A stretch of 63,838 nucleotides of DNA, filler included. It is 5 parts of 5 records of this genome, joined end to end, with 100 filler letters (N's around TTAATTAATTAA, not from the genome) between each part and the next. Parts side by side here need not be neighbours in the genome. Positions count along the whole stretch, not along the records: positions 1 to 24,649 come from DRR723986_11609; 4 more parts are not named here. One strand, given 5' to 3'. Below the pieces are notes generated by a model. It did not search any database, was not told the DNA's origin, and saw only the letters and a program-made list of their open reading frames with translations. This document shows, piece after piece, positions 9,171-30,599 of the stretch (position 1 is the stretch's first letter; each line of letters starts with the position of its first letter). The translations under genes and the position numbers were made by a program.

Positions 9171-9178
9171 CAGATGGC

Positions 9179-9889: not shown

Positions 9890-10338
9890 CCTGTAAATCG
9901 TTTGAACATCACCAAGGCGTCTTCGCGGCCCAGTTGAGACGGGTAGTAATTCTTGCGGGCCCCAATCAGTTTGAACCCCTCTTTCTCATACAGGTTTTTT
10001 GCAGTCACATTGCTGGGTCTGACCTCTAGCAACATGCCGGTTGCATTGGCCAGTTTGGCCTGGCCAATGCCCCATTGCAACAAGTGCTTGCCGTGCCCCA
10101 TGCCTTGCAAATCGGCACGAATAGAGATGTTCAGCAAGTGGTATTCATCCACCACGTGCATCATCACGATGTATCCTGCAAGTTGCTCATCCAACCACAT
10201 GCAGTGCATGTGATAACCCGCCCGCAAAGAGTCCAGAAAATTCCGGTCTGTCCAGGGAAACTCGTAAATCTGGTTCTCAACCAGAATTACAGCAGGCACA
10301 TCGGCCTCTGTCATGGGTCGAATACTAAATAACGCCAT
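9886..10338 (-). CDS. rimI: Ribosomal protein S18-alanine N-acetyltransferase
   Basis: HLLNISI..QGMGHG, LEVRPSN, RKNYY..GREDALVM; directly downstream of tsaB. Confidence 0.93.
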   Translation of the reverse strand: MALFSIRPMTEADVPAVILVENQIYEFPWTDRNFLDSLRAGYHMHCMWLDEQLAGYIVMMHVVDEYHLLNISIRADLQGMGHGKHLLQWGIGQAKLANATGMLLEVRPSNVTAKNLYEKEGFKLIGARKNYYPSQLGREDALVMFKRFTG

Positions 10339-11029
10339 GCTTCAACGCCAATCGTTCAGTGGTGGTTTGGGCGACCTTGTCGCGAACATACAAAGGCTGA
10401 CAGTCAAACGGCGCAACCACTCGACCTGCCGCAAACTCTTGCCAGGCCAACTGTGCCAAGCGAGTTGCACAGACTACCCCAGGCTCAATGCCTTTACCGG
10501 GGTTTGCTCGCTGAGCATACAAATGGGCATCACACACAGCAGGCCCTTGAATGTTCTGAAATTTATCCATGGCCAACAAATGGGGAGGATCCAACCACTC
10601 CGTACCCTTCGAAGTCCGCCGAATGCGAGCGGCATAGATTTCATTCAAACGCGCATCAATCAATAGTGTGAACGACTGATCACTGTACTGTTCGGGCAAC
10701 ATGCATTCAAAGCTGGTCAACGGCACAGCGGGTACTTGCCAGGCCACAGCCAGACCTTGGGCAATACCACATGCTGTGCGCAAGCTGGTAAAGCCACCTG
10801 GGCCAATATCTACGGCAATCGCTGCACACTGGGCGGGCTTTGCCCCAGATTGTTCAAGGTGTTGCCGAATCATGGGCAGCAATTGGGCAGACTGGCTTTT
10901 GTAATCCACAATTTCAAAACCAAACAGGCCAGCACCCAGCGAATCGGATCCATGCGGTTCAGTGGTGGCCACCACCTTGGCAACACCGGAACTGGTACTG
11001 ATCGCCAAAATAAAACGGGAAGCCATCAC
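10325..11029 (-). CDS. tsaB: tRNA t6A biosynthesis protein TsaB
   Basis: [35 protein letters not shown]. Confidence 0.92.
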
Positions 11030-11520
11030 TCACCCTTCACCATCAGCACCACAGCCTGCGCCTCAATGGCCTCCTTGCGACCAAGGTAACCCAGTTTTTC
11101 GTTGGTTTTGGCCTTGATGTTGACTGCATCCAGTGGCAAGCCACAAAGGCTGCTTAAACTTGAATGCATGGCTGCCATGTGAGGGGCAAGCTTTGGGCTT
11201 TGGCAAATCAGAGTGGAATCGATATTGATCAAGGTAAACCCCTTACGCCCGGCCTTCTCGATCACGTTTTTTAATAGGATGCCGCTATCAGCCCCTTCAA
11301 ACTGTGGGTCTGTGTCTGAAAAATGAGTGCCAATATCGCCCATCGCGCAAGCGCCCAGAATTGCATCAGTAATGGCGTGCAACAGCGCATCTGCATCGGA
11401 ATGACCCAGCAAACCGAGCTCGGAAGGAATGTGTACTCCGCCCAAAATCAGCCGACGCCCTTCGACCAGGCGATGTACGTCATACCCCTGCCCCACTCTC
11501 AAGCGGCCAATTTCACTCAT
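11026..11520 (-). CDS. ispF: 2-C-methyl-D-erythritol 2,4-cyclodiphosphate synthase
   Basis: [35 protein letters not shown]. Confidence 0.97.
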
Positions 11521-12248
11521 TCAAAATTCTCCTGATGCAAACCAAGCAATCTGGCCACTGTCCGCAAATCTTCGGCTTGGGTAATTTTCATGTTTTCCAC
11601 ATGCCCCGGAACGATCAGGGGACCAATGCCCAGGGTTTCAATCGCACTGGCATCGTCGGTTAACTGGGCACCTTTGTACAAGCACTCGGAAATAGCCATG
11701 CTAAGCGCCTGCGCCCGAAACATTTGCGGCGTCTGCGCCGCCCACAAGTGGTCTCTGGGCACCGTGTGTTGAGCAATCACTTCGCCTTCTTGGGCCAAGC
11801 TGGTTCTCTTCAAGGTATCCGCCACAGGCACAGCCAACAACGCGCCCGCAATGTGTTCACTGCCCTCATCAATCAGGCGTTTCAACGCGGCAGCGCTCAA
11901 GCCAGGCCGCGCGGCATCGTGCACCAAAACCCAATCGGTTTCACCCACCAGTAAATTTTCAAGCAAATGGTTCAGGCCATTGAGCACGCTATTCACGCGT
12001 TCCTGTCCCCCCAAGGGCAGGCAGATAACCTGGCTGTTGCCCTGAAACAGCTTCATCGCTGCGGAATCATCACTTGCAACAACCACGAACACCTTTTCCA
12101 CGCGCGGGTCAGCCAACAATGCCCCTACGCTGTGCTCCAGCACTGTTTTAGCGCCCAGTATCGTATATTGCTTGGGAATGGCGCCACCGAAGCGACGACC
12201 CGCCCCACCTGCGGGCACCAATCCAAAATACTTGGCAGTTTTTGCCAT
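11517..12248 (-). CDS. ispD: 2-C-methyl-D-erythritol 4-phosphate cytidylyltransferase
   Basis: [40 protein letters not shown]. Confidence 0.97.
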
Positions 12249-12343
12249 GAAAGCCTGTTCCTATGCGGGTACTTGCCGCCGTATAATACGGGCCTTGATT
12301 CATCGACCCAAAACCCGAACTTGACGCCCACTGGAAAACCAGC

Positions 12344-15300
12344 ATGGTTGTTGTATCCAAGCGGGCGAACCTTATGCTGTCATATTTTACTTCTTCTTTT
12401 CAGCTAACCAGCGGCCACAGGCTCAGCTTGGCGCACCCACCAGGCAGCGCTGATGCGTTTTTGTTGGCGCAACTGTGTACCCAGGCAAAGACACTGGACA
12501 AACTTTGCCTGATTACCTGCGCCAACCCACACGACGCCACACGCCTACAAGAAGAAATCGCCTTGTTTGCACCCGCATTAAAAGTGCATTACCTGCCTGA
12601 CTGGGAAACACTGCCCTACGACAGTTTGTCAGCCCACCAAGACTTGGTATCCGAACGACTCGCCACGCTTTACCAAACCCAGCGTGGTGATCTGGATGTG
12701 TTGATTACAGCGGCCAGCACTGCCATCCAGAAACTGGCACCCCCTTCGTTTTTGGCTGGCAGTACTTTCTACTTCAAAACGGGCGACAAACTGAATGAAA
12801 AGAAGCTGCGTGAGCAGTTGACGATTGCGGGTTATAACCATGTTTCACAGGTCATGACACCCGGTGAATACTGTATTCGCGGCGGCATTATCGACCTGTT
12901 TGCAACCGGCACTGCATTGCCGTTTCGAATTGATTTGTTTGATGATGAAATTGAATCCATCAAAACATTCGATGTAGACACCCAACGCAGCCTGTACCCC
13001 GTGCGGGAAATGCGCCTGCTACCTGGCCGCGAATACCCCATGGATGAACAAAGCCGTGCGCAATTTCGCAGCAAATGGCGGGAACGTTTCGAAGGTGACC
13101 CTTCCAAGGTGTCCATTTACCGAGATATGGGCACGGGCGTGGCCAGCGCAGGCATTGAGTATTACCTGCCCCTGTTTTTTGAGAACACCGCCAGCCTTAT
13201 TGATTACCTGCCCAAAAAAGAACTGGTGTTTATTCAACATGGCGACGTCGACCAAGCCTTGCAAACATTTTGGGCTGACACACAAAGCCGTTTCGATTTT
13301 CTTTCGAAAGACATTCAACGCCCTATTCTACGACCTTCCGAAATTTACCTGAATGCCACTGAATTCTTTAGTAGTTTCGAGAATGCTGCACGCGTAAATT
13401 TGTCGGCATCCAAGAACGCCCTGGTGCCGGAATACAGCGGCGCGCTGCTGCCCGACCTGGCTGCAGATCGCAAAGCCGACGATCCAATTTTCAAGTTCCG
13501 CAACCTGGTAGAACGAACGGGTGCAGGAAGCTACAAACAAGTCATCATGGTGGCACCAAGCGATGGTCGCCGCGAAACCCTGAACCAGTATTTTCTGGAA
13601 CACAAACTAAAGCCCCACCAAACAGAAACACTGCAAGGTGCACTAGAAAGTGGCGAACGTTTTGTACTGTGCACTGCAGTGCTCGACCAAGGATTTGGCG
13701 TACACCGCGGGCTGGAAGCGCAAGTGGCGTTCGTCACGGAAGCAGAATTATTCTCGCTCTCACCCCGCCGCCGCGGCGCACGCAGGCAACAGGAAAGGCA
13801 AAGCAACGTTGAATCCATGATTCGCGATTTGTCTGAACTGAAAATTGGCGATCCGGTAGTGCACCAGCAGCATGGCATAGGCCGCTACAAAGGTCTGATC
13901 AGCATGGACCTTGGTGAAGGCGCATCTGAATTCCTGCACCTTGAATATGCCAATGGTTCAAACCTGTTTGTGCCGGTCGCCCAACTGCATGTGATTGCCC
14001 GCTATAGCGGCGCTGACCCGGAAAATGCGCCAGTACATGCCCTGGGTTCAGGCCAATGGGAAAAGGCAAAAAAGAAAGCGGCAAAAATGGTGCGCGACAC
14101 CGCGGCCGAATTGCTCAACCTTTATGCCCGCCGCGCGCTGCGCAAAGGCCATGAATTCAAGTTAAGCATTGGCGACTACGAAGCCTTTGTTGAAAAATTC
14201 GGTTTTGAAGAAACCGCTGACCAGGCCGCTGCGATTCGAGCCGTCATTGCCGACATGACCTCACCTCGCCCCATGGACCGCCTGGTGTGCGGCGATGTGG
14301 GCTTTGGAAAAACCGAAGTAGCCTTGCGTGCTGCTTTCGTCAGCGTAATGGATGGCAAACAGGTGGTGCTGCTGGCACCCACCACATTGCTTGCTGAACA
14401 ACATTTTCAGACCTTCTCAGACCGGTTTTCGGACTGGCCTGTGAAGGTGGTTGAATTGTCGCGTTTCAAATCGCCCAAGGAAATTCGGGATGCAGTTGAA
14501 TTAATCAACAGTGGGCGTGCCGACATCATTATTGGTACCCACAAGGTGCTGAGTTCCGAGGTGGAGTTTTCCCGCCTTGGCTTGGTAATTATTGATGAAG
14601 AACATCGTTTTGGTGTGCGCCAAAAAGAAGCGCTGAAAAACCTGCGTGCCGAAGTAGATGTGTTGACACTGACCGCAACACCCATTCCACGTACCCTGGC
14701 CATGAGCATGGAAGGCATTCGCGATTTTTCGGTGATTGCCACCGCACCGCAACGTCGCCTGTCGATTAAAACCTTTGTGCGCCGCGAAACCGACAGTGTC
14801 ATCCGTGAAGCCGTGCTGCGTGAATTGAAACGTGGCGGGCAGGTGTACTACCTACACAATGAAGTGGACACCATTGAAAACCGTCGAGAAGCGCTTGAGA
14901 GAATATTGCCCGAAGCACGAATCGGGATTGCCCACGGGCAAATGAACGAACGCGACCTTGAACGTGTGATGCGCGATTTTTACCAGCAACGCTTCAACGT
15001 GTTGTTGTGCACCACCATCATTGAAACCGGTATTGATGTACCCACCGCCAACACCATTGTCATTCATCGCGCGGATAAATTCGGCTTGGCACAATTGCAC
15101 CAGCTGCGCGGCCGGGTTGGGCGAAGCCACCACCAGGCCTACGCCTACATGATGGTGAACAATGAAGAAGGTTTGAGCAAGAATGCGGAGCGTCGCCTCG
15201 AAGCCATTACCATGATGGAAGACCTTGGCAGCGGTTTTTACCTGGCCATGCATGACCTTGAAATTCGTGGCGCTGGTGAAGTGCTGGGCGCCAACCAGAG

Positions 15301-15838
15301 CGGCAATGTGCACGAAGTGGGTTTTCAAATGTACACCGATATGCTGAACCACGCCGTACGCAGTTTGCGCGCAGGTAAAGAGCCCGATTTAACCGCACCG
15401 CTGAACGCCACGGTAGAAATTAACCTCCACACCCCTGCCCTGCTACCGGAGGATTACTGCCCCGATGTACATGAGCGTCTTACGCTGTACAAGCGCCTCG
15501 CCAGCACAGAAGAAATGGACTTTATTTCAGAGGTACAAGAGGAATTGATTGACCGTTTTGGCAAATTGCCTGACGCAGCCACGGCACTGCTGGAAACGCA
15601 CCGTCTACGCATTCTGGCCAAACCACTGGGCATTGCAAAAATTGACAGCTCCACCGACGCAACGGTGGTGCAGTTTGATGCCCAACCGAATGTGGATGCG
15701 GGCAAAATTATCTTGATGATTCAAAAAGAAAAGGACATGAAACTGGCTGGTGCTGAACGCTTGCGGATCACACGCAGTTTCCCGAAAGTCAGCGACCGTG
15801 TACAGTTTCTCAAAGGTTTGATCAAACAACTGGCTTGA
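12344..15838 (+). CDS. mfd: Transcription-repair coupling factor
   Basis: LPDWETLPYD, CGDVGFGKTEVA, DEEHRFGV, QLRGRVGR and TRCF C-terminal domain; start may instead be 12374. Confidence 0.97.
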   Translation: MVVVSKRANLMLSYFTSSFQLTSGHRLSLAHPPGSADAFLLAQLCTQAKTLDKLCLITCANPHDATRLQEEIALFAPALKVHYLPDWETLPYDSLSAHQDLVSERLATLYQTQRGDLDVLITAASTAIQKLAPPSFLAGSTFYFKTGDKLNEKKLREQLTIAGYNHVSQVMTPGEYCIRGGIIDLFATGTALPFRIDLFDDEIESIKTFDVDTQRSLYPVREMRLLPGREYPMDEQSRAQFRSKWRERFEGDPSKVSIYRDMGTGVASAGIEYYLPLFFENTASLIDYLPKKELVFIQHGDVDQALQTFWADTQSRFDFLSKDIQRPILRPSEIYLNATEFFSSFENAARVNLSASKNALVPEYSGALLPDLAADRKADDPIFKFRNLVERTGAGSYKQVIMVAPSDGRRETLNQYFLEHKLKPHQTETLQGALESGERFVLCTAVLDQGFGVHRGLEAQVAFVTEAELFSLSPRRRGARRQQERQSNVESMIRDLSELKIGDPVVHQQHGIGRYKGLISMDLGEGASEFLHLEYANGSNLFVPVAQLHVIARYSGADPENAPVHALGSGQWEKAKKKAAKMVRDTAAELLNLYARRALRKGHEFKLSIGDYEAFVEKFGFEETADQAAAIRAVIADMTSPRPMDRLVCGDVGFGKTEVALRAAFVSVMDGKQVVLLAPTTLLAEQHFQTFSDRFSDWPVKVVELSRFKSPKEIRDAVELINSGRADIIIGTHKVLSSEVEFSRLGLVIIDEEHRFGVRQKEALKNLRAEVDVLTLTATPIPRTLAMSMEGIRDFSVIATAPQRRLSIKTFVRRETDSVIREAVLRELKRGGQVYYLHNEVDTIENRREALERILPEARIGIAHGQMNERDLERVMRDFYQQRFNVLLCTTIIETGIDVPTANTIVIHRADKFGLAQLHQLRGRVGRSHHQAYAYMMVNNEEGLSKNAERRLEAITMMEDLGSGFYLAMHDLEIRGAGEVLGANQSGNVHEVGFQMYTDMLNHAVRSLRAGKEPDLTAPLNATVEINLHTPALLPEDYCPDVHERLTLYKRLASTEEMDFISEVQEELIDRFGKLPDAATALLETHRLRILAKPLGIAKIDSSTDATVVQFDAQPNVDAGKIILMIQKEKDMKLAGAERLRITRSFPKVSDRVQFLKGLIKQLA

Positions 15839-15842
15839 ATTC

Positions 15843-16886
15843 ATGACCCACAACGCTGGCAGACACCAAATTTGGTTGCACTTGTTGGGCGCAGCGCTTC
15901 TTGGCTGTGCGATTCTCAATGCAGCCACCGCCAAAGCGGCGGAAAGCCCGACGGCTGGCGATGCTGGGATGACCGTGTACAAAGCGCTTCTACCAAAGGC
16001 CGAAGCGGGCGATGCTGAGGTACAAACCACACTTGGGCTGATGCGCTTACGCGGCGATGTGGTAGAGCGCGACCTGAAAGTTGCACGCGTGTGGCTGGGT
16101 AAAGCAGCCCTTCAAAACCATACTCCTGCTCAATATTATCTGGGGCAATTGCTGTTGCTTGATGTATTCAACGCCAGTCAAAGCGATTTGAACAAACAGC
16201 TAACCGAGGGTATGGGTTGGTTGCGTCGCGCATCGCGAGACCAACACCACCCATCGCAATTGCTGTATTCAAAAACCGTGCTTGAAAGCCAATTGGAGAG
16301 CCCATTCGGACACAGTAAAATTGAAGCCCAGCAACACCTTGATTCCTGCGCAGAAGTTCATTTGCCCTGCACGCAGTACGCACTACAGCGACTCGACCAA
16401 GGAAAAGAAGAGGTTTATTGCCCCAACAATGAATTCTGTGAACAGAAAAAACGATTGTTGTATACGCTAGCCAATTCAGATGACGCCAATGCTCGTTACC
16501 GGCTGAGCAAATTCGAAGGCGAAGACCGCATGTTTTGGATAAGGCGTGCTGCGCGCTTGAATCATCCAAAGGCAAGCCACGAGTTGGCCGAGTTGGTGTT
16601 GAAAAATGAAGTGCCCCTGCAACCCGAAGACCCTGCCGTACTGGCCCTGCTCAACGCAGCCGCGCAACAGGGTGAGCTTGAATCCATGTATCTCCTGGGC
16701 AGCCTGCTCCATGAAGGAACCCGATTTCCTGTCAACAAGCCCTTGGGGTTACAATGGTTAAACCTTGCGGCGCAACGGGGTCACAAACCCTCGATTGAAC
16801 TCTTGGCACAACTTCAAGAGCCCGCCGGCAACATTCCTGCAACTGACAAGGTAGAATCCGCGCAACCCACGGAGAGCACACCATGA
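15843..16886 (+). CDS. Exported Sel1-like repeat protein
   Basis: Signal peptide ending AKA; Sel1 motifs AEAGDAEVQTTLG, WLGKAALQNH..AQYYLG, WLNLAAQRGH. Confidence 0.8.
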   Translation: MTHNAGRHQIWLHLLGAALLGCAILNAATAKAAESPTAGDAGMTVYKALLPKAEAGDAEVQTTLGLMRLRGDVVERDLKVARVWLGKAALQNHTPAQYYLGQLLLLDVFNASQSDLNKQLTEGMGWLRRASRDQHHPSQLLYSKTVLESQLESPFGHSKIEAQQHLDSCAEVHLPCTQYALQRLDQGKEEVYCPNNEFCEQKKRLLYTLANSDDANARYRLSKFEGEDRMFWIRRAARLNHPKASHELAELVLKNEVPLQPEDPAVLALLNAAAQQGELESMYLLGSLLHEGTRFPVNKPLGLQWLNLAAQRGHKPSIELLAQLQEPAGNIPATDKVESAQPTESTP

Positions 16887-17755
16887 GCCGACTATTCTTT
16901 TCCTCGCAAACTTTAAGCACAGCACAAGTGCACACAGCCCTGGATGCACTGAGCCTTCCAACCTTGGGTGTTGAGGTGCTGAATCACCAGGCATGCATCG
17001 AAATTCCAGAAGCCTATACCCTGCCCAAAGCTGCAATCACCGACACCTTGAGACCGTTGGCACGTACACATCAATTCGATTTTGCAATTCTGGATGCCGA
17101 GTTTCAGGCCAATGAATTCAAGCTGCTGGCCATGGACATGGACAGCACCTTGATTACCATTGAATGCATCGATGAAATTGCCGACTTTGCGGGCAAGAAA
17201 AAAGAGGTTTCAGAAATTACCGAAGCTGCCATGCGCGGCGAGATCAAAGATTTTTCTGAAAGCCTGAACCGCCGCGTGGCCTTGCTCAAGGGCGTGCCGG
17301 AAAGCTGCCTGCAATCCGTATTTGAAGAACGCCTGCGCTTATCACCGGGCGCAGAAGAACTGATAGCGTATGCCAAAGCAAACAAGTGGAAAACATTGTT
17401 GGTCAGTGGTGGCTTCACATTTTTCACAGACAAAATGAAAGAAGTATTGGGGCTGGATTACACCCGCTCCAACACGCTTGAAATTGTAGATGGGCATTTG
17501 ACAGGCCGTGTGCTGGGCACCATTGTGGATGCAGAAGTAAAACGCGAAACCGTGTTGGAAACCTGCACAATATTGGGCTGCGAGCCCTCACGCGCCATTG
17601 TGGTGGGCGATGGATCGAACGATTTGAAAATGATGGAAATTTCAGGTGCCAGCGTGGCTTTTCATGCCAAGCCAGTGGTGCAGGAGAAAACAGATTTTTG
17701 CATCAACCACGGCGGCTTGGACACGATATGCAAGTGGTTTGAAGCAAACGTATAA
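16883..17755 (+). CDS. serB: Phosphoserine phosphatase
   Basis: HAD motifs MDMDSTLI..ECIDE, LVSGGF, GDGSNDL. Confidence 0.95.
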   Translation: MSRLFFSSQTLSTAQVHTALDALSLPTLGVEVLNHQACIEIPEAYTLPKAAITDTLRPLARTHQFDFAILDAEFQANEFKLLAMDMDSTLITIECIDEIADFAGKKKEVSEITEAAMRGEIKDFSESLNRRVALLKGVPESCLQSVFEERLRLSPGAEELIAYAKANKWKTLLVSGGFTFFTDKMKEVLGLDYTRSNTLEIVDGHLTGRVLGTIVDAEVKRETVLETCTILGCEPSRAIVVGDGSNDLKMMEISGASVAFHAKPVVQEKTDFCINHGGLDTICKWFEANV

Positions 17756-17840
17756 CTCATTCAAATTACCCTCCAACAAATGAACTTTCTGGAAATGGCA
17801 TGCAACACAGTCGGTCACAGATCACCGAAGCAAATGTTGC

Positions 17841-19559
17841 ATGCTCCCTACACCGGAATCATCGTCCCTTCTAAAAACCGCGCTGCAAGGCCATAGGCGC
17901 TGGCTAAAAGTTTTAATCGCTTTCAGCGCCGCAATTAACCTTTTGGCACTTACACCCAGCATTTACATGATGCAGGTGTACGACAGGGTATTAAGCAGCC
18001 AAAGCCAATCCACACTACTGGCACTCACTGCCTTGGTTGTTGGGCTTTACATCCTTGCAGGCATGCTGGAACACCACCGCGTCGCCACCCTGACCCGAAT
18101 TGGAAATGCTCTTGAACAGGAATTCAGCGCCAGGCTGCACACTGCGGCGTTTCAACGTGCCCTAAAAACGCAGGGAAAAGACAACACCGGGCAAGCCATT
18201 CGCGATTTCTCCGCAATTCGTCAATTCATGACCAGCCAGGGTGCCATTGCCCTGTTCGATACTCCGTGGGTGTTGTTCTACATCACATTGCTGTTCGCAT
18301 TTCACCCCTTGTTTGGATTGATGGCACTTTGCTGCGTAGCAATCTCGATCACATTAAGCTGGCTTCACCTTCGAAGCACACGCCCTTTCGAGGAACAAAC
18401 CAACGCACTGGGCATTCTCAGTGCGAACACCATGAACTCGACCCTTCAAAACGCCAACTCCATTCAGGCCATGGGAATGCTACCCACCGTTCAAACCGAA
18501 TGGCTGAGTATTCAAAACGAGCAAACCAACCAACACACCGGGTCTGCCGATGCTTCCTCGGTGTGGACGAACAGCAGCAAATACTTCCGCATGTTTGTGC
18601 AAAGCGCAGCCCTTGGGCTTGGTGCTTATTTGGTATTGAATCAATCACTCAGCGGCGGGATGATGATTGCCGCTTCGATTTTAATGGGCAAGGCACTTGC
18701 CCCGGTCGACATATTAAGCAGTGCCGCCAAAGCATTAACCGGTACACGCCAGGCGTATGAACGCCTGAATAAATTGCTCAACAACAGCCCGCAGACCCGC
18801 GAATTAACCGAATTGCCCACACCCAAACCTGTTATCGAATGCCGCAACATGTACCTGGCAGCGCCTTTGTCAGGCCTATGGCTTTTAAAAAATATTCAGT
18901 TACAAATACCTGCGGGAAGTACCGTGGGTGTAATCGGCCCCAGTGGGTCGGGTAAAACCAGCCTGCTTCATGCACTTGCAGGCATTCTGCCAATTTCCCA
19001 GGGCCGCCTGGAAATTGATGGTGCCGACATTGCACAATACCCCCGCAGCCAACTGGGTGCATGGACAGGTTACCTGGCCCAGCATGTTGAACTGTTTGAA
19101 GGCACAGTTGCACAAAATATTGGTCGCTTTGAACACAACAACGACGAACACATCGTACAAGCCGCTATGGCAGCAGGCGTACACGAACTTGTATTGAAAC
19201 TACCCAAAGGCTACAACACACCACTGGGTGCACAGGGCGAAGGCTTATCGGGTGGCATGCGTCAACGAATAGGGCTTGCTCGGGCCCTGTACAAAAAGCC
19301 ACAACTGTTGCTGCTCGACGAACCCAACGCTCATCTTGATGAAGCAGGTGAAGCCGCTTTGGCCAACGCACTGGTGCAGCATCAACAACACGGCAACACT
19401 GCCATTGTAGTAACCCACAAAAAATCGATTCTGCGCGTGTGCAACAAATTGCTGGTTCTTCGCGACGGTGAAGTATCCGTGTACGGAAACACCCACGAAG
19501 TACTCACACATCTTCAACAACAACCCCCTACACAGCTGACAAGAGTAAAAAATGCATAA
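17841..19559 (+). CDS. Type I secretion ABC transporter (PrtD/AprD type, no C39 domain)
   Basis: YMMQVYDRVL, GPSGSGKT, LSGGMRQRIGLARALY, LDEPNAHLD. Confidence 0.93.
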   Translation: MLPTPESSSLLKTALQGHRRWLKVLIAFSAAINLLALTPSIYMMQVYDRVLSSQSQSTLLALTALVVGLYILAGMLEHHRVATLTRIGNALEQEFSARLHTAAFQRALKTQGKDNTGQAIRDFSAIRQFMTSQGAIALFDTPWVLFYITLLFAFHPLFGLMALCCVAISITLSWLHLRSTRPFEEQTNALGILSANTMNSTLQNANSIQAMGMLPTVQTEWLSIQNEQTNQHTGSADASSVWTNSSKYFRMFVQSAALGLGAYLVLNQSLSGGMMIAASILMGKALAPVDILSSAAKALTGTRQAYERLNKLLNNSPQTRELTELPTPKPVIECRNMYLAAPLSGLWLLKNIQLQIPAGSTVGVIGPSGSGKTSLLHALAGILPISQGRLEIDGADIAQYPRSQLGAWTGYLAQHVELFEGTVAQNIGRFEHNNDEHIVQAAMAAGVHELVLKLPKGYNTPLGAQGEGLSGGMRQRIGLARALYKKPQLLLLDEPNAHLDEAGEAALANALVQHQQHGNTAIVVTHKKSILRVCNKLLVLRDGEVSVYGNTHEVLTHLQQQPPTQLTRVKNA

Positions 19560-20844
19560 CGAACTCGACATCAAAAAAGTGTCCCGCAGAGGCCTTGTTA
19601 CTCTGATTGTCGGTTTCATCGGCTTCGTGGTGTGGGGCAGCCTTGTGGCCATGGACAGAGGCGTGGTGGTAAACGGCACACTCACCTTTCATGGGGAACG
19701 TAAAACCATTGTGCACCCCCACGGCGGCGTGGTTGAAAAAATATGGATTACCGAAGGGCAACTGGTACAACAAGGCCAAACACTGATCAGCCTGAACAAC
19801 ACTGACAGCCAAACCCAGTTGAACGCGCTTCAGGTTCAACACAAAGCGTTGTTGGCAAAGATGGAACGGCTTCAAAAAGAAACAGGCAACAACCTCGAAA
19901 CCACCACAAAGCCTGAAAGCACGGGCAAAGCGGCTGACCCGTTTCAAACCCGGCAACACGAAGCAGAAGCAATGCTGTACGCGAGCCGCCAACGTGCCTT
20001 GCAAAACGACATTCGCATGCTTGAACTGGAAAGCAGCACCGCCCAAAACAGCCTGACTTCGCAAAACAATGCACAACGCAGCAAACAGCAGCAATTGGAA
20101 AGGTTGAAACAACAACACCTTGGCATGGCAGACATGGTGGCCAAAGGCTACATGCCTGCCAACCGGCTTGTAGAACTGCAAGGCCAAATCAGCGCGCTGG
20201 AAGTGGCACTGGCTCAAGATGAAATTCAAATCAGCCAACTGAATGCCACCATACGCAACGCAAAACTGAAAAAGCAGCAACTTCACAACCAGCTGCAAAC
20301 AGAAAGCCAAACCGTACTGGCCGATGTACAAGCCGAACTGGCCGCGCTGGATGAGCAAATTCAGCGCATCGCCTTTGTTGTTCAACACACCAACATTCAA
20401 AGCCCGGTGGCTGGCCAGGTATTGGGATTAAAGCTATTTACGCAGGGCAGCGCCATGCCAGCGAACACACCGATCATGGACATTGCACCGAATGGCAGCG
20501 AACTTGAAATTAGCGCAGAACTTGAACCTGCAATGGTTGATCAGGTAAAAGCCGAACAGCCGGTAACAGTTCGTTTCAGTGCCCTTAAAACAGCACAAAC
20601 GCTGGAAGTTGAAGGTGTTTTAAATCGCGTAGGCGCAGACCAGTTAAGCAACCCCACCACAGGCATGCCCTACATCCCCGTGAATGTTCGCCTGACACAA
20701 AAGGCGTTAGAAGAAATTGCACAACACCGTATACAGGCAGGTGTGCCGGTTGAGTTATTGATTGTAACTGGCGAGCAAACGCTAATGCAGTACCTGTTCA
20801 AACCGATTACAGACAGGCTATTTAGTGCCATGCGGGAGCATTAA
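19552..20844 (+). CDS. Type I secretion periplasmic adaptor (HlyD/PrtE)
   Basis: N-terminal TM, HPHGGVV, long coiled coil, IQSPVAGQV, TGEQTLMQYLFKPI. Confidence 0.92.
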   Translation: MHNELDIKKVSRRGLVTLIVGFIGFVVWGSLVAMDRGVVVNGTLTFHGERKTIVHPHGGVVEKIWITEGQLVQQGQTLISLNNTDSQTQLNALQVQHKALLAKMERLQKETGNNLETTTKPESTGKAADPFQTRQHEAEAMLYASRQRALQNDIRMLELESSTAQNSLTSQNNAQRSKQQQLERLKQQHLGMADMVAKGYMPANRLVELQGQISALEVALAQDEIQISQLNATIRNAKLKKQQLHNQLQTESQTVLADVQAELAALDEQIQRIAFVVQHTNIQSPVAGQVLGLKLFTQGSAMPANTPIMDIAPNGSELEISAELEPAMVDQVKAEQPVTVRFSALKTAQTLEVEGVLNRVGADQLSNPTTGMPYIPVNVRLTQKALEEIAQHRIQAGVPVELLIVTGEQTLMQYLFKPITDRLFSAMREH

Positions 20845-20848
20845 CACC

Positions 20849-22177
20849 ATGGCACTCAAGCTGAAAAACATGTTGAAACTATTTGCAGCTGTGTGCTGCT
20901 GGTGGGCACTTTCGCCTTCAGCACACGCAAAAAGTGTTGAACAATTGCTGCAATACGCCATTGAAACATCTCCCGAGGTAGCCACGGCCAAGGCTCAAAT
21001 GCAGGTTGCACAAGCTGACCTGAAAATAAGCGAAGCCGCCTGGCTTCCCCAAGCCAGCGCGCGGCTATACAACGGCGTAGGCGATACCAAGCAATCCAAC
21101 CCGTTTGCCAACCAGCGCAATGCGAACGAAACCATTCAGAACAACAGCATCTCCCTTCAACAGAGTATTTACAACAAACCCGCTTCCATTCAAATTGAGC
21201 AAACTCAACTCACCGTTCAAGAAGCCGAGTTGCGCCATACTTTGGCTGTTCAAACCACCATTCAATACTGGCTAGCCAAGCTAATGGACTACAAACAAAG
21301 CAAGGCTTTGCTGAACCTGACCGAACACAAACAACAAACAGCCCTGCTTCAAAAAGAACATGTAGAACAAGGTTTGATGAACGGTGAAAACAGCGCACTG
21401 GAACTTGCCAACGCAGAATCAGAGGCTGCCCTGCGCCAGGCCGAGCATGTGCAGGCCGAGCAGGCGGTGAAGCAGCGCTTGTGGGAACTCTCGCAGCTAA
21501 CCGGGCAAGAAGTGGTTCCGGTATGGGTTGATGATATTGAATTCAACATGCCCCCTACCCGGCACAACGAAAAGGAACTTGAACAGGAAGTGCTTCAGAA
21601 CAACCTGGGCTTGAAAATTCAGCAGCTGTACAAGCAAGCCGCTACTCTGGAAATTAACAAAGCAAATGGGCAACACCACCCCACCCTGAAACTGGTGGCC
21701 CAATATTCGCAAAGCCAATCAGAAACAGTCAGTACCCTGGGCAACAGGGTTGAACAAAACGTGCTGGCCATTCAAATGGACATTCCATTGTTCAACGGTT
21801 TTGCTACCCAGGCACAAACTGAAAAAGCAGCAGCCAGCCTGAACCAGCAGCATGCTGACTACAACAAAACCAGCGCCCAAGTGTTGCGCGATACCCAAGC
21901 TGCACACCGGCAACAGAATAGCGCCACCCATTTGTGGAAAGCCTATACACAGGCAGACCATGCGGCCACACAACAACAACTGGCCATTGAAACAGCAATT
22001 AAGTACCAACTGGCCACACCGCTTGATTTGGCAAAATCCAAAGAAAAACTGACTGAACTGAAAACAAAGAAAATGGAATACCTGCTGGCAGCCAATAAGG
22101 CTTACTTGCTGGTTCATGAATTGACCGGGAAATTGAATATTGAAAGTGCTGTAGAGCGCTTATCAACGCGGGAATAG
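20849..22177 (+). CDS. TolC-family outer membrane protein of the T1SS (PrtF/AprF-like)
   Basis: Signal peptide ending AHA, AWLPQ / HHPTLKL repeats, IPLFNGF; ATG at 20849 preferred over the longer track start. Confidence 0.88.
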   Translation: MALKLKNMLKLFAAVCCWWALSPSAHAKSVEQLLQYAIETSPEVATAKAQMQVAQADLKISEAAWLPQASARLYNGVGDTKQSNPFANQRNANETIQNNSISLQQSIYNKPASIQIEQTQLTVQEAELRHTLAVQTTIQYWLAKLMDYKQSKALLNLTEHKQQTALLQKEHVEQGLMNGENSALELANAESEAALRQAEHVQAEQAVKQRLWELSQLTGQEVVPVWVDDIEFNMPPTRHNEKELEQEVLQNNLGLKIQQLYKQAATLEINKANGQHHPTLKLVAQYSQSQSETVSTLGNRVEQNVLAIQMDIPLFNGFATQAQTEKAAASLNQQHADYNKTSAQVLRDTQAAHRQQNSATHLWKAYTQADHAATQQQLAIETAIKYQLATPLDLAKSKEKLTELKTKKMEYLLAANKAYLLVHELTGKLNIESAVERLSTRE

Positions 22178-22302
22178 AGGTGATGTGTAACCCGGAAGAA
22201 TGGGGTTAACTTGACCACTTTTGTGTTTCCTTGACATGGAGATATTCTGCGTTAGCTAGGAGATAAATGGCGAACTGATCAACAAACGAAAATACGGATT
22301 TC

Positions 22303-22881
22303 ATGAAAAGTTTAAAGGAGGTAATTTTTGTGCATTTTCTACTCAATGTATTGACAGCCATCTTGTTGCTACTAGGTTTATTCTCACCAAGGTTTGGTGA
22401 GTTGCTTTCACCTCAGACGACTGTAATTACCTTGCTAGTCTCAGCGATTGTTCTCTCAATAAGTATCGGTATTTTGTGGTTCAGCGCAATCAAGAGGGAG
22501 ATGGCAAATGGCGCTATCACGAATATCCATAAAACCGTTGACGCGCTTTTAAAGAACAAAAACAGATGGCTGCAAGTAGTTCTACCAGTTGTCTACGCAA
22601 GTAAAAATGATAGTAGCCGCGATGCAAAGTCGTGCATGAATATTATTCAGCATAGATTTATGTCCTCATTTCTCATGAGTATTTGGGCCTTAGGAATCGG
22701 AACAATTGCAGCATTGACTTTCGAAGACGCTCGCAGTAGCAGGGGACTTTTTAGCATGTTGCTTAATAGTTCTGAAGGGAAAGGTCTAGCGATAGCATTC
22801 AGTCTTTACATCAGCATCTCAAGTCTCGCATTTTTGACAATCGGTTTTCTAGCATTCCTTAATAGAGAGAATTCAAAATGA
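22303..22881 (+). CDS. Hypothetical 4-TM membrane protein (AT-rich), overlapping the RTX gene start
   Basis: 192-aa ORF with four hydrophobic segments; its stop overlaps the next ATG (ATGA, 22878-22881). Confidence 0.75.
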   Translation: MKSLKEVIFVHFLLNVLTAILLLLGLFSPRFGELLSPQTTVITLLVSAIVLSISIGILWFSAIKREMANGAITNIHKTVDALLKNKNRWLQVVLPVVYASKNDSSRDAKSCMNIIQHRFMSSFLMSIWALGIGTIAALTFEDARSSRGLFSMLLNSSEGKGLAIAFSLYISISSLAFLTIGFLAFLNRENSK

Positions 22882-24649
22882 TTTATATCTTCACTAAAGC
22901 TGGTATCGTCGCAGTTGAAGGCGGATATGGTGCTGTTTCCGCACTTCGACATATTGGGGCACAAATCGCTGATGATTTGGCAAGATTTGCAGGGGAAATA
23001 GATGACGCTAACTCACTAAGTGAGGTTGTGCAAAATTCTCTGAACGGTAACGAATTAGAAACTTTAAAGGTCGTTGGCGCGGTTGCCTATGGAGGTGCAA
23101 TTGGAATGGGGATTGCAGCAGGAGCTGTACCTGCTGTTGGCACTATTGCCATTTCGTTTGGTGTTGGATGGTTGGCTGGGATGCTCTACGAGTGGGCATT
23201 TGACGCGGCTGTAGGAGCAGGTCAACGTGCGGGGTCTGCTGCTTACGATTCATGGGGTGGAGACGCTATCGATCCATCTCTCTACAAAGACTGGAACACC
23301 GCCAAGCAAACAGTGTCCCCCCTCATCCTCGACCTCGATGGTGACGGTGTTGTTGAAACCCAAAGTAAAACGGAAGGCATTTACTTCGACCACGCAGGCG
23401 ATGGCTTCGCTGAAGCAAGCGGCTGGGCCGGTTCGGATGATGGCCTGCTGGTGCGCGACCTCAATGGCGATGGTGCGATTAACAATGGGACTGAGCTGTT
23501 TGGCAACAACACGCGTCTGAAAAACGGCCAATACGCCGCCAACGGTTTTGAAGCCCTGAAAGACCTCGACAGTAACAAAGACGGCAAACTGAACAGCGCT
23601 GATGCTGCATGGAATTCACTGCGCGTGTGGAAAGACACCGATGCCGACGCACAAACCGACGCAGGCGAATTGCTCAGCCTGGCTAATGCAGGCGTAAGGG
23701 AAATCAAACTGGCTTACACCAATGCAGGCACCAACCCGGATCAACTCGGTAACGAACACAGACAAACCAGCACCTACACAACAACCAGCGGCACCGTACG
23801 CGCGGTTCACGATGTTTGGTTCAGTACCGACAACTGGAACACAGTCGACCAACGCACGCCCATTGAACTGAGCAGCACCGTAGCAGCCATGCCCGAAGTA
23901 ATTGGCAGCGGCACACTGGGCAGCCTGCGCCAGGCCATGATGCGCGATACCACTGGCCAGCTGATTACAGCGGTTAATAAGTACCTGACAACAAGCAACC
24001 TTGCGCAGCGCGACAGCCTGCTTCAGGACGTGTTGTACCGCTGGGCAGGCGTAAAAGATCAAGACCCCACCCTGCGTGGGCCCTACATAGAGGATGGCCG
24101 AAAGTTGGCTGTGCTAGAGGCTTTTTTTGGTGAGCGATATGTACAAGAGGGCGGAGCTCAACCGGGCTTTACAATCAACGACCCCGGCCCAGCAGCAGCC
24201 GATAAACTAATCAGTCTTTTTGCTGACGTAGCAACCAAGCTAGCAGCTCAACTGGACATTCACGGTCATGATGCCCCCTTCTACAATGCAATTAGCTTGA
24301 ACTGGAACGAAAGCACCAACAGCTTCTCCATAGACGCATCGGGTGTCGAGGCATATGTTCGTGAGCTGTATGCACAGCAACCCACACAAGCCTTGGATAA
24401 CTTTGGTCATTTCATTTTTAATTTGAAAGAATTGGGTACAACAGAGGTACTCAATGCCTTGGCTGTTGTAGGAAACCTGGAAGGTGATGAAATTGATCAA
24501 TTGCTTGCACGTGTAAGCTGGAGTTGGGGGACAAGGGGTGATGATCAACTAATAGGGAATCCCAACCAAGATAATTTCTTGTTTGGCTGGAGGGGTAATG
24601 ACTCGCTTTCGGGTGGAATTGGCAATGACACCATCCATGGGGGTACCGG
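22878..24649 (+). CDS. FrpC-like Ca-binding RTX protein, T1SS cargo (3' truncated)
   Basis: PLILDLDGDG..GW..SDDGLLVRDLNGDGAINNGTELFG..DSNKDG..LRVWKD matches the FrpC self-processing module; RTX nonapeptides begin at GWRGNDSLSGGIGNDTIHGG just before the contig end. Confidence 0.88.
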
Positions 24650-24749
24650 NNNNNNNNNNNNNNNNNNNNNNNNNNNNNNNNNNNNNNNNNNNNTTAATTA
24701 ATTAANNNNNNNNNNNNNNNNNNNNNNNNNNNNNNNNNNNNNNNNNNNN
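24650..24749. other. Artificial contig spacer
   Basis: 44 N + TTAATTAATTAA (stops in all six frames) + 44 N. Confidence 0.98.
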
Positions 24750-25755: not shown

Positions 25756-27278
<1,523 letters not shown>

Positions 27279-27282
<4 letters not shown>

Positions 27283-28460
27283 GCCACGACCTCGCCGCCG
27301 AACCAGCGTTCCGCCAGCGGGTTGAAGCCGAACCGATAGGCCAGCTCCGCCGGTTGCTTGACGTCCCAGACCGCCAGATCGGCCCGACACCCCGCCGCGA
27401 TCCGGCCCGTGTCCGATAGACCGAGCGCCTTGGCTGCGTTCACCGTCACGCCCCTCAGCGCCTCCTCCGGCGTCAGGCGGAACAGGGTGCAGCCCATATT
27501 GACCGCCAAGAGCAGCGAAAACATCGGGGACGAACCGGGGTTCGCATCCGTCGCCAGCGCCATCGGGACGCCATGGCTGCGGAATGCATCGACCGGCGGC
27601 ATCTGCGTTTCATGAAGCGTGTAGAACGCGCCGGGCAGCAGCACGGCGACAGTGCCAGCGGCGGCCATCGCCTTTGCGTCAGCTTCAGTTGCGTATTCCA
27701 CATGATCGGAAGACAGCCCGCCATACCGCGCCACCAGGTCCGTCCCACCCAGATGAGAGAGCTGCTCGGCATGCAGCTTCACCGGCAGGTTCAGCGCCTT
27801 GGCAACCTTGAACACCCGCTCGATCTGAGCGGGCGTAAACGCGATCCCTTCACAGAAGCCATCGACCGCATCAACCAGCCCTTCGCCATGGGCCTGATGC
27901 AGCGCCGGGATGCAGACCTCGTCGATATAGGCATCGGCATCCGCCCCCGGCGGCACCGCATGGGCACCAAGAAAGCTGGTCACGATCCGCACCTTGCGGT
28001 GACGTTCCAAGGCCCGCGCCGCGCGCAACATATTCAGCTCTGCCTCGATGCTCAGCCCATAGCCGGATTTCACCTCGACGACGTTGACACCCTCCGCCAG
28101 CAGCGAATCCAGTCGCGGCAGCGCCAGCGCCACCAGATCCGCAACGCTTGCAGCACGGGTGGCCGTAACCGTGGACAGGATGCCGCCCCCTTCGCGCGCG
28201 ATCTGCTCATAGCTCGCGCCTTCCAGCCGCAATTCGAACTCTCGGGCGCGATCGCCCGCGTGGATCAGATGGGTGTGGCAGTCGATCAGCGCGGGCGTGA
28301 TCAGCCGCCCGCCCATGTCGCGCGTCTCGGCCTCTGGCGCCTCGGCACGAGGCCCGACCCATGCCACCCGGTCACCGTCCAGCAACACCGCCCCGTCAGG
28401 GATCAACCCATAGGGCGCGCCCTCTGCCATTGTGGCCACCGTCGCATTCACCAAAAGCAT
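27279..28460 (-). CDS. hutI: Imidazolonepropionase
   Basis: [40 protein letters not shown]. Confidence 0.96.
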
Positions 28461-28499
28461 GATCGACTCATTTCGCTTGATTAATCCCTGCTCGAAAGC

Positions 28500-28517
28500 A
28501 TTATGTATGCACATAAT
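28500..28517. promoter_or_regulatory. HutC operator between divergent hutI and hutF
   Basis: ATTATGT-ATGC-ACATAAT inverted repeat containing TGTAtgcACA, close to the HutC consensus TGTA-N2-TACA. Confidence 0.8.
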
Positions 28518-28539
28518 CGAGTCAAGCAGGGATTTGACC

Positions 28540-29901
28540 ATGGAACATGTCTGGGCACAGACCGCGCTGACCCCCGATGGCTGGCAAAACGATGTGCTGG
28601 TCACGCTGGATGCCGGGCGTATTGTCCGCGTCTCGCCGGGGGCCGCACCGCAGGGCACGCGCACCGGCTGCCTGCTGCCCGCACCGGTCAACGCCCATTC
28701 CCATGCGTTTCAGCGCGCCATGGCCGGGCTGACAGAACGCCGTGGCCCCGACCCAAGCGACAGTTTCTGGACCTGGCGGCAGCTGATGTTCCGCTTTCTG
28801 GACCGGATCACGCCCGAACAGGTGGAGGCCATCGCCGCCTTCGTGCAGATGGAGATGCTGGAGGCGGGCTATGCCACCAATGTCGAGTTTCACTATCTGC
28901 ATCATCAGCCCGGCGGCACGCCCTACGCGCGACTGTCCGAGCTGGCCGACCGGATCGCGGCGGCGGCGGACCTTTCGGGTATCGGCCTGACCCTGTTGCC
29001 GGTCTTCTACCAGACCGGCGGGCTGGATGGGCGCGGGCTGGCTTCTGGCCAGCAACGCTTTGGCAATCACCCGGACCGTTTCGCCCGCTTGGCGGAGGAG
29101 GCCCGCGCGCGTATCGCGGCAGGCCCCGACGACTTTGGTTTCGGGATCGCCCCCCATTCGCTGCGCGCCGCTCCCCTAGAAGGCATCCGGCAGGTCACAC
29201 AACTCGCCCCCGATGGCCCGATCCACATGCATCTGGCCGAGCAAAAGGCCGAGGTGGAGGAGGTACTGGCAGCGACCGGCAAACGCCCCGTGGAATGGGT
29301 GCTGGACACACTCGCCCCCGATCACCGCTGGCATTTCATTCACTGCACCCAGATGGAGCCGCACGAAACCGAGGGGCTTGCCCGGTCCGGGGCGACCGCC
29401 GTCCTGTGCCCGCTGACCGAGGCCAGCCTTGGCGACGGCATCTTTGACGGGGTCCGCTGGATGAATGCGGGCGGGCGCATTGCCATTGGCTCTGACAGCA
29501 ACATCCGCATTGCTCTGGCTGAGGAGCTGCGCCAGCTCGATACCAGTCAACGCCTGCGCGATCATTCCCGCGCGGCTTTGGCGACGCCGGATCGTTCTAC
29601 CGGGCGGCGATTGTTCGAAGCGGTCACCCAAGGCGGCGCAAGCACGGCGGGCCGTCAGACCGGCGCCCTTGTCGTTGGAAACTGGGCCGATATGCTGGCG
29701 CTCGACACGAACAACCCGGACCTTGACGGCATGAATGGCGACCTGATCCTCGACAGCTACATCTTTGCAGGCGATGACCGCATGGTGTGCGACGTCTGGT
29801 CCGCTGGCCGCCACATGGTCACACAAGGCCGCCACATCCACCGCGACGACATCGAAGCCGCCTACAGGGCCGCCGTCCGCGCGCTTCGGGCAACCGCATG
29901 A
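28540..29901 (+). CDS. hutF: Formimidoylglutamate deiminase
   Basis: [39 protein letters not shown]. Confidence 0.95.
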
Positions 29902-30599
29902 GCGACACCAACACATGGCAGGGCGTACAGAACGAAGTGCGCCGCCGCATCCGGTCCCGGCAATGGAAACCGGGCGACCTGATCCCGAATGAGGCCGATC
30001 TTGCCACCGAGTTTGGCTGTGCCCGGACAACCGTGAACCGGGCGCTCAGGGAACTGGCGGGGTCAGGTCTGGTGGAACGCCGCCGCAAGTCCGGCACCCG
30101 CGTGGCGCTGCATCCCGTCGGCAAGGCGGTGATCGAGATCCCCGTCATCCGGCAGGACATAGAGGGCAGCGGCCAGCGTTACGACTATGCGCTGCTGAGC
30201 CACACGATCACCCCGCCGCCACCCCGGATCGCCTATGCGCTCGGGCTTGGGGACGCCACGCGCAGCCTGCATCTGACCGCCATCCACCTTGCCGATGGCG
30301 CGCCCTATGTTCTGGAAGATCGCTGGATCAACCTGTCTGCCGTGCCGCAGGCAGAACACCATGATTTCAGCCGCAAAAGCGCCAATGAGTGGCTGCTGGA
30401 AACCGTCCCGGTCGCGCGCGGGGAACTGGCGATTTCGGCCCAACCCTGCGGGGCAGAGGAGGCGCGTGCCCTCGATCTGGCCGTCGGCACGCCGCTTCTG
30501 ACACTGGAACGCAGTACCTGGGGGCCTGACGCCCCCGTTACCTTCGTGCGGCTCTGGCACATGCCGGGCCACCGGATCGTGTCGCCTATCGCGGGCTGA
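29898..30599 (+). CDS. hutC: Histidine utilisation repressor (GntR-UTRA)
   Basis: GntR HTH PNEADLATEFGCARTTVNRAL plus UTRA domain; ATGA overlap with hutF. Confidence 0.88.
   Translation: MSDTNTWQGVQNEVRRRIRSRQWKPGDLIPNEADLATEFGCARTTVNRALRELAGSGLVERRRKSGTRVALHPVGKAVIEIPVIRQDIEGSGQRYDYALLSHTITPPPPRIAYALGLGDATRSLHLTAIHLADGAPYVLEDRWINLSAVPQAEHHDFSRKSANEWLLETVPVARGELAISAQPCGAEEARALDLAVGTPLLTLERSTWGPDAPVTFVRLWHMPGHRIVSPIAG

Follow-up and report, generated by a model that had tools for sequence, protein, structure and literature searches.

A candidate type I-secreted polymorphic toxin with an exchangeable N-terminal cassette in Limnobacter DNA

Introduction

The closest described systems to the locus reported here are FrpC and FrpA of Neisseria meningitidis with FrpD: substrates of a type I secretion system (T1SS) in which an N-terminal part precedes a self-processing module (SPM) and then repeats-in-toxin (RTX) sequences, with the partner gene directly upstream. 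FrpC is cleaved by attack of the Asp414 side chain, as nucleophile, on its own carbonyl in a twisted Asp-Pro amide (PMC7078468). The N-termini of FrpA and FrpC are mutually unrelated (PMC3034196), a likeness to the variable N-terminal domains described below, and the N-terminal variation of FrpC/FrpD has been ascribed to immune pressure and the pair itself to adhesion (PMC5472700). We analyzed a window of 63,838 nucleotides (the whole stretch of DNA studied, consisting of five joined contigs), in which a T1SS gene set is followed by a small gene for a protein with four transmembrane (TM) segments and by an RTX gene that places an N-terminal domain, the head, in front of an SPM-like module. This locus differs from FrpC in having Ser-Pro for Asp-Pro, Asn at the D478 position and an unrelated head, and from FrpD, which is an outer-membrane lipoprotein, in that its partner is a 4-TM membrane protein.

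Polymorphic toxins such as CDI/CdiA, Rhs and MafB (PMC3482391) provide a second comparison. As in those systems, a constant delivery body is combined with recombining toxin modules and a linked, co-varying small gene, and displaced "orphan" cassettes with part of the conserved junction still attached, a lower GC content of the cassette and strain-level variation are likewise found. Unlike in classical polymorphic toxins, the variable domain of the window locus is N-terminal, and the immunity candidate and the orphans of its relatives lie upstream, a mirror-image layout that is expected when the T1SS signal is C-terminal; the place of VENN, PT-HINT and the like as junction and processing element is taken by an SPM-like module. 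The available text of Zhang et al. 2012 (PMC3482391) contains neither "T1SS" nor "FrpC", and "RTX" appears in it only with regard to host-directed toxins.

Further partial likenesses exist. The Caulobacter Cdz system (CdzC/D with CdzI; PMC5380434) also uses a T1SS and a Gly/Ala-rich hydrophobic payload, and CdzI has three predicted TM segments; unlike the 134-aa head carried here on an RTX protein of more than 1000 aa, the Cdz proteins have 84-86 aa, N-terminal leaders, extended GxxxG zippers and no RTX or SPM (PMC5380434). The likeness to Cdz is one of description; GxxxG in the window's head is not enriched over composition. Pore-forming colicins combine a hydrophobic helical hairpin with a 3-4-TM immunity protein. 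For the window's head, the likeness to colicins comes down to a weak language-model lead (0.87), and delivery and domain order differ. Min-Wnt (Lipocone) domains have been described as toxin domains N-terminal to an RTX beta-roll, interpreted as export of a polymorphic-toxin domain by a T1SS (bioRxiv 10.1101/2025.01.14.632903); they belong to another head family, and the portion of that preprint available describes no SPM junction, upstream immunity cassette or orphan arrays.

An earlier note on this DNA had proposed that the small gene and the head form an exchangeable cassette on a constant processing and export body. Comparison with relatives establishes the gene set, the SPM homology, the swap of head and upstream gene, their co-variation, their common composition and the accessory nature of the island. 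From sequence, it is very probable that the locus has an exchangeable cassette architecture, with an upstream gene and an N-terminal head on an SPM/RTX body behind a T1SS. We propose, with a probability of roughly 0.6, that it encodes a T1SS polymorphic toxin of mirror-image layout, in which an N-terminal head acts on membranes and a membrane protein confers immunity.

Results

Architecture of the locus

The entire locus under study, from a freshwater bacterium, lies within the first contig, and its last gene is cut by the contig end. Its features are as follows.

17841-19559, + strand: T1SS ABC transporter, PrtD type, 572 aa (TIGR01842 E 4.5e-187, 622.9 bits, cutoff 510; PF00005, PF00664)
19552-20844, + strand: T1SS membrane-fusion adaptor, HlyD family, 430 aa (TIGR01843 E 4.8e-81; PF13437)
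20825-22177, + strand: TolC-family outer-membrane protein, 450 aa (PF02321 E 3.5e-28; TIGR01844 E 2.4e-36, under that model's own cutoff)
22232..23286, + strand: variable cassette; the sequence has no counterpart in Limnobacter loci that are otherwise nearly identical
22303-22881, + strand: small 4-TM gene, candidate immunity protein, 192 aa as longest open reading frame (ORF), 183 aa from the likely GTG start at 22330
22878..23279, + strand: N-terminal head (residues 1-134), starting polar and continuing into a hydrophobic, Gly/Ala-rich helical hairpin at ~63-105
23280..23318, + strand: conserved junction DWNTAKQTVS ending in Ser147 (the FrpC Asp414 position); W.TAK.T.SP is common to P0007-P0015
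23319..23840, + strand: SPM-like module, residues 148-321 (phmmer against PDB 6SJW_A, the FrpC SPM, E 8e-43)
23841..24527, + strand: conserved linker, residues 322-550, within a 456-residue stretch 91-95% identical to P0007-P0010; no Pfam match
24528..24647, + strand: the first of the RTX nonapeptide repeats, interrupted where the contig ends (PF00353, residues 565-589; the CyaA RTX in PDB 7USL matches)

Dedicated genes for the ABC transporter, the membrane-fusion protein (MFP) and the outer-membrane protein (OMP) lie on the same strand directly upstream of the small gene and the RTX gene, and the matches to TIGR01842, TIGR01843 and PF02321 bear out the full ABC-MFP-TolC set reported in the earlier note. 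Only 125 nt separate the OMP gene from the small ORF, and the window holds no displaced cassette. The small gene ends in a TGA that shares bases with the RTX start codon, ATG at 22878 (ATGA), and this overlap, together with four hydrophobic segments in the small protein, confirms what had been said of the 4-TM gene. Scans for promoters, terminators and repeats around the cassette gave nothing exceeding chance.

Exchange of head and upstream gene

The nearest bodies, those of P0007-P0010 from Limnobacter-like metagenome-assembled genomes, are 91-95% identical to the window's over residues 135-590 and show no similarity to its residues 1-134. Homology starts at residue 135, at the W.TAK.T.SP motif directly before the SPM, in agreement with the earlier placement of the variable domain at the N-terminus. 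Five head types occur on nine close bodies (55-95% identical from residue 135), and the window's head is matched by none of these types at E <= 1e-3. The head/body boundary coincides with a step in G+C content at third codon positions (GC3), which is 0.28-0.36 over head residues 1-125 and 0.54-0.68 over residues 126-425; the small gene has a GC3 of 0.41, against 0.54-0.56 in the neighbouring genes, so that the contrast in codon use between the AT-rich small gene and head and the module that follows is upheld.

A body match is found in 8 of 26 Limnobacter genomes. The locus order mfd-Sel1-HAD-ABC-MFP-OMP-[small gene]-RTX-thiolase is syntenic, and it is the pair of small gene and head that varies:

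Window: upstream gene 183 aa, 4 TM; head 134 aa
G306: upstream gene 155 aa, 4 TM; head 267 aa
G194: upstream gene 199 aa, 1 TM; head 231 aa
G279: upstream gene 173 aa, soluble; head 436 aa
G307: upstream gene 172 aa, 2 TM; head 174 aa

A related 170-aa gene and head occur in G250 elsewhere in its genome. At the DNA level (blastn), the identity of the first contig with L. olei P1 (locus L019; 98.2% over 17891-22231) and with genome G194 (locus L098; 95.3% over 15034-22231) stops at 22231, 54 nt past the OMP stop, and homology with G306 (L096) breaks off at 22249 and is found again from 23287, a short way ahead of the SPM; the variable cassette therefore spans approximately 22232-23286. Identity to the window's body falls to ~40-44% in L. 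olei and G194 (~40-43% in L. olei, despite a 98% identical T1SS); whole-gene replacement also occurs. Of the proposed exchangeable cassette on a constant body, the exchange is thus supported by the unrelated heads on the nearest bodies, whereas strict constancy of the body does not hold.

Traces of earlier cassettes are present in L. olei P1, where two relics lie between the T1SS and the active RTX gene (L019 4577-7226). The first consists of a 199-aa gene and a 368-aa ORF, composed of a head and an internally deleted SPM stub, which are 98.5% and 96.5% identical, respectively, to the active cassette of G194. The second, 103 aa long, is a piece of a third head type; its first 64 residues match the beginning of the P0014 head at 72% identity. 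In L. olei the active pair consists of a gene for a 4-TM protein of 189 aa and an RTX gene of 1681 aa, the head of which is of the same family as the window's. Stub and active gene have the junction IYQDSDDESSC-P in common, which is the trace expected from cassette insertion by recombination in a conserved junction. Truncated ORFs with a head and a partial SPM are also found upstream of the full-length gene in L011, L021, L030 and L081; L040 may hold another displaced cassette, although the contig begins within its upstream ORF and the SPM match there is full length.

Three relatives show further variants of the cassette. In G309 (L097 5189-7236), two paralogous 147-aa genes lie upstream of the RTX gene, beside a 143-aa gene that is paired with one for a 4-TM protein of 124 aa; the additional genes may be extra immunity genes or another toxin-immunity pair. 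The 436-aa head type of G279 (L099 5273-6661) and G250 (L102 1936-2448) goes with soluble upstream proteins of 156-173 aa that are alike at their N-termini; G279 has two tandem copies, and the G250 cassette lies away from a T1SS, beside two unidentified ORFs. In Limnohabitans sp. JirII-31 (L008 3616-10022), two tandem cassettes have bodies 98%, heads 35% and upstream genes 43% identical; judged from these sequences, the cassettes have diverged on a homogenised body.

The presence of the T1SS varies between strains as well. The island comprising it is:

17757..24649, + strand: accessory island (T1SS, small gene and RTX gene); bounded on the left, with the right end missing where the contig stops

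In the conspecific genome G001 (L108, G001:C21), the stop of the HAD gene is followed 57 nt on by the thiolase gene and the island is missing; the RTX protein and the small protein are both without a match in G001. The whole T1SS-plus-RTX island is accessory and variably present between strains.

Co-variation across SPM-bearing loci

Together with the window, 80 genome loci yielded 90 SPM-bearing ORFs, of which 71 were usable cassettes, defined by a complete head of at least 60 aa and a same-strand upstream ORF of at least 70 aa within 200 nt; 19 were left out for open ends, short heads or the lack of a qualifying upstream ORF. The 2485 pairs of cassettes are distributed as follows:

Upstream proteins and heads both related: 17
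Only upstream proteins related: 1
Only heads related: 95
Neither related: 2372

Thus 17 of the 18 pairs with related upstream proteins are also related in their heads (Fisher odds ratio (OR) 424, p 7e-23; since cassette pairs are not independent, the p-value only describes the table). Together with the differing cassettes at the syntenic Limnobacter locus, this is the co-variation of head and upstream gene that the earlier note had set in advance as the test of its proposal. The gap to the upstream gene is at most 40 nt in 61/71 cassettes. Composition follows the same division across the class: GC3 is higher in the body than in the head in 57/71 cassettes and higher than in the upstream gene in 60/71, and head and upstream gene are correlated (r 0.89).

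Pfam matches were obtained for some of 70 heads (Lipase_3 in 9, Mbeg1-like in 6, DUF6973 in 5, Peptidase_M23 in 1 and phage lysozyme in 1) and of 70 upstream proteins (ankyrin-repeat in 3, PD40 in 4, WD40 in 2). Peptidoglycan-hydrolase heads (M23, lysozyme) make sense only against bacteria. Among 20 individual hydrophobic or long heads, the only matches were lipase-type in L025 and a sub-threshold match to the Colicin domain in L041 (E 6.7e-4, 20 bits, under the cutoff of 23.4). Upstream proteins with at least two TM segments accompany 9/21 heads with hydrophobic segments and 6/50 other heads (OR 5.5, p 0.008; the cassettes are not independent).

The N-terminal head

The head is hydrophobic and Gly/Ala-rich only at residues ~63-105, residues 1-62 being polar or amphipathic; the hydrophobic Gly/Ala-rich character suggested earlier for ~145 aa accordingly applies to that stretch and not to the preceding residues. 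The label "glycine zipper" is not borne out: GxxxG occurs four times against 2.4 expected, a count reached by 350 of 2000 shuffles, so that the periodicity does not exceed composition, and the Pfam glycine-zipper families (PF13488 and relatives) give no match to the head at E <= 0.01. Pfam Colicin does not match the head either. ESM Atlas look-ups with the head and the small protein returned weak leads only (0.84-0.91), among them glycine-zipper (0.88) and colicin-like (0.87) entries.

A search of 1.84 billion proteins with residues 1-150 gave 25 representative relatives of the head at E <= 1e-3. Match positions are available for 24 of these, every one N-terminal, and an SPM-type motif follows the head in 15 of 16 head-family sequences inspected. 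The head family is found on Asp-Pro bodies in ten representatives and on Ser-Pro bodies in three, the other 12 being cut before the junction; its presence on both indicates that the head moves between body subtypes. In GTDB genomes it was found in 1/301 of the family sample and 1/401 of the order sample, both being L. olei, whose head is ~40% identical to the window's. In metagenomes, scanning with an alignment of the head turned up one locus, L081, whose head is 47% identical. Co-folding of head residues 1-146 with residues 10-192 of the small protein gave a score of 0.00, obtained without alignments and with an uncertain partner fold, which speaks neither for nor against an interaction.

The upstream 4-TM protein

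The small protein probably comprises 183 aa from GTG 22330, the start at ATG 22303 probably being wrong, because AAGGAGG at 22316-22322 precedes this in-frame GTG by 7 nt and because all three database homologues begin at the matching position. The ORF of the earlier note is therefore retained, and its length of 192 aa probably is not. The 183-aa form has four hydrophobic segments: 1-23, 25-56, 110-132 and 151-179. There is no Cys in the N-terminal region, hence no lipobox, and the protein is not a surface lipoprotein. The small ORF matches nothing in Pfam or NCBIfam, and only three homologues were found among 5.8 billion proteins (identity 98, 69 and 69%). The head family and its 4-TM partner are thus rare and match no known family.

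All three loci with the window's head family (the window, L019 and L081) have a gene for 183-189 aa directly upstream, with a common plan: TM1-TM2, a polar loop of ~55 aa, TM3-TM4 and an ATGA overlap with the RTX start. The small proteins of the window and of L081, a metagenome contig, align over their full length at 21% identity (pairwise E 9e-6).

Junction, SPM-like module and RTX body

Residues 148-321 of the RTX protein align end to end with residues 1-174 of the 6SJW_A chain (FrpC SPM, FrpC residues 415-591). The scissile pair is Ser147-Pro148 (23316-23321) and not Asp-Pro, so that the earlier identification of a FrpC-type self-processing module is right as to homology and not as to the canonical cleavage site. 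Both members of the FrpC W451/W519 pair are kept in the window: W183, which is invariant, and W251, conserved in at least 90% of sequences (alignment A1). The FrpC D579 position is also kept, and the D478 position is Asn; in FrpC, D478N lowers cleavage without abolishing it (PMC7078468).

The Ser-Pro pair is the dominant form among the relatives covered. The residue before the SPM proline is Ser in 117 of 120 body homologues, with Cys in 0, Asp in 1 and no motif found in 2; among the 90 locus ORFs it is Ser in 64, Cys in 7 and Asp in 9, with no motif found in 10. An extended junction, (F/W)..A(E/K).T.SP, accompanies the Ser-Pro or Cys-Pro variants. The restriction of this position to Ser, Cys or Asp suggests a nucleophile there. 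Ser147 is unable to perform the attack of Asp414, and the clip-and-link chemistry of FrpC cannot simply be assumed; possible routes, judged from sequence, are (i) direct hydrolysis of a strained bond, or (ii) an N-to-O/S acyl shift one bond upstream. The FrpC/SPM literature covered contains no account of the cleavage ability of Ser-Pro or Cys-Pro variants.

The RTX gene (22878-24647) is cut after residue 590 by the contig end at 24649. Its repeats begin near residue 551, and only the first of them precede the contig end; the PF00353 match (E 1e-4) stays at 22.7 bits against a cutoff of 23. Full-length relatives have 4-11 RTX repeat stretches together with HCBP_related modules, and those with bodies 91-95% identical have 5-11 stretches. 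The body from residue 135 is common: of 8000 candidates scored, 713 are long relatives at E <= 1e-5. GC3 falls again to 0.34-0.38 at RTX residues 500-590 (24378-24647), despite 91-95% identity to P0007-P0010, and low GC3 is therefore not confined to the cassette; these residues may form a further mosaic segment of the body.

Discussion

Secretion, cleavage, toxicity, target and immunity can be predicted for this locus along the following lines. The RTX/SPM body would serve as the vehicle for export and processing and would be exported C-terminus first by the T1SS encoded just upstream, so that the N-terminal head would be the last part to emerge. Calcium would then fold the RTX and SPM-like parts outside the cell, as is established for T1SS substrates and the SPM (PMC7078468). 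Folding of the SPM-like module probably frees the head, by a chemistry that must differ from that of FrpC because the scissile pair is Ser-Pro. The 134-aa head would be the payload, most likely acting on membranes through its Gly/Ala-rich hydrophobic helical hairpin, and the translationally coupled 183-aa 4-TM inner-membrane protein is most likely the immunity protein, which would shield the producer's own inner membrane.

Several observations weigh against this proposal. The support for the head family and for the function of the partner comes from sequence comparison. Homology of the partner extends to two of the three loci with this head: the 189-aa 4-TM protein of L. olei has no sequence or profile similarity to the window's small protein, and the third locus therefore agrees in architecture only. 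Likewise, of the 112 cassette pairs related in their heads, no more than 17 show a detectable relationship between the upstream genes; in the other 95, many head matches are weak or incomplete, and some of these pairs arise from miscalled upstream ORFs (for example L017/L018). An AlphaFold2 model of the head (24-row alignment) is poor, with a pLDDT of 54, and gives no support for a fold. The replacement of the mechanism-essential Asp-Pro by Ser-Pro makes release of the head the weak link, and a released head would need a route across the outer membrane of its target. The RTX gene is incomplete in the window, and the C-terminal secretion signal cannot be seen for that reason. Finally, the SPM-bearing RTX proteins studied so far are described, in the available part of PMC7078468, as being without cytotoxicity on host cells.

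Other explanations have to be weighed against the same evidence. The classical RTX proteins are cytolysins (PMC3034196), a hydrophobic hairpin has to be shielded until it is exported, and lipase heads could act on eukaryotic membranes, all of which would suit a pore-forming cytolysin directed against grazers or hosts, with the upstream membrane protein as a secretion chaperone or holding factor. We consider this unlikely, since the strict pairing and co-variation of upstream gene and head, together with the strain-level presence or absence, fit self-protection in kin competition better, and since the M23 and lysozyme heads point to bacteria as targets; it overlaps with the toxin-immunity proposal because a holding factor would also act as self-immunity. 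A head that merely retains the RTX protein on the producer's envelope, next to an unrelated gene, would make similar use of the hydrophobic hairpin, and in the established model the N-terminus is the last part to leave the T1SS. LapA-type adhesins are the comparison for such an N-terminal retention module. This is highly improbable for the present locus, given the stop/start overlap, the same plan of the upstream gene in all three loci with the head family, the exchange of head types, enzymes among them, between near-identical bodies, and the self-processing module placed directly after the head.

The adhesion interpretation of FrpC/FrpD deserves separate mention, given the strong SPM homology to FrpC: the head would be an adhesin fragment, retained at the surface or cross-linked there, and the upstream protein its anchor or receptor. 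The upstream frpD product of Neisseria binds the FrpC N-terminus at ~0.2 nM (PMC5233953), and the pair has been interpreted as an adhesin (PMC5472700). Yet the partner in the window is a 4-TM protein lacking a Cys or lipobox in its N-terminal region, and Ser-Pro cannot yield the Asp anhydride that linking requires (PMC7078468). Heads of the class include peptidoglycan hydrolases and lipases, and conflict systems typically show cassette turnover that leaves displaced remnants; we therefore regard an adhesion system as distinctly unlikely here.

If the proposal of a toxin with its immunity protein is carried beyond this locus, SPM-bearing RTX proteins overall would be a large, overlooked class of T1SS polymorphic toxins, the mirror image of CDI and Rhs. 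We advance this tentatively, at slightly less than even odds. It has several components: (i) the toxin may be N-terminal and the immunity gene upstream, with displaced head-plus-SPM-stub cassettes accumulating upstream; (ii) the calcium-triggered SPM may be an extracellular release device; (iii) Ser-Pro or Cys-Pro in most environmental members may represent a second, undescribed cleavage chemistry; and (iv) Neisseria FrpC/FrpD and FrpA may be toxin-immunity pairs and not adhesins. In the literature searched, with subscription journals and supplementary files outside the search, we found no description of SPM-RTX proteins as toxin-immunity cassettes. If the toxin-immunity proposal holds, the T1SS would join T5, T6 and T7 as a route for polymorphic toxins, with an architecture set by the C-terminal secretion signal. 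The SPM, whose role in FrpC and ApxIVA is so far unclear, would gain a rationale, namely to free an N-terminal payload on meeting calcium outside the cell, and the dominant Ser-Pro and Cys-Pro variants (117/120 body homologues; 71/90 locus ORFs) could widen the NeissLock-type toolbox for protein engineering.

Composition of the window and neighbouring genes

The five contigs of the window are joined by four artificial N44-TTAATTAATTAA-N44 spacers (24650-24749, 42339-42438, 52409-52508 and 58147-58246), the first of which follows the contig with the locus:

24650..24749, no strand: artificial contig spacer (N44-TTAATTAATTAA-N44)

The first contig (1-24649) has a GC content of 52% and the remaining contigs 56-67%. 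The high GC of the later contigs and a 4-kb probe from the high-GC part (26000-30000), which had no match in three Limnobacter genomes, make the assembly look mixed, and it is probably a mixed bin. Upstream of the island, the first contig carries:

12344-15838, + strand: mfd (Pfam TRCF, DEAD and related domains)
15843-16886, + strand: Sel1-repeat protein (PF08238)
16883-17755, + strand: HAD phosphatase (PF00702)

This contig is Limnobacter DNA, 99.1% identical to genome G001 over 7187-17756.

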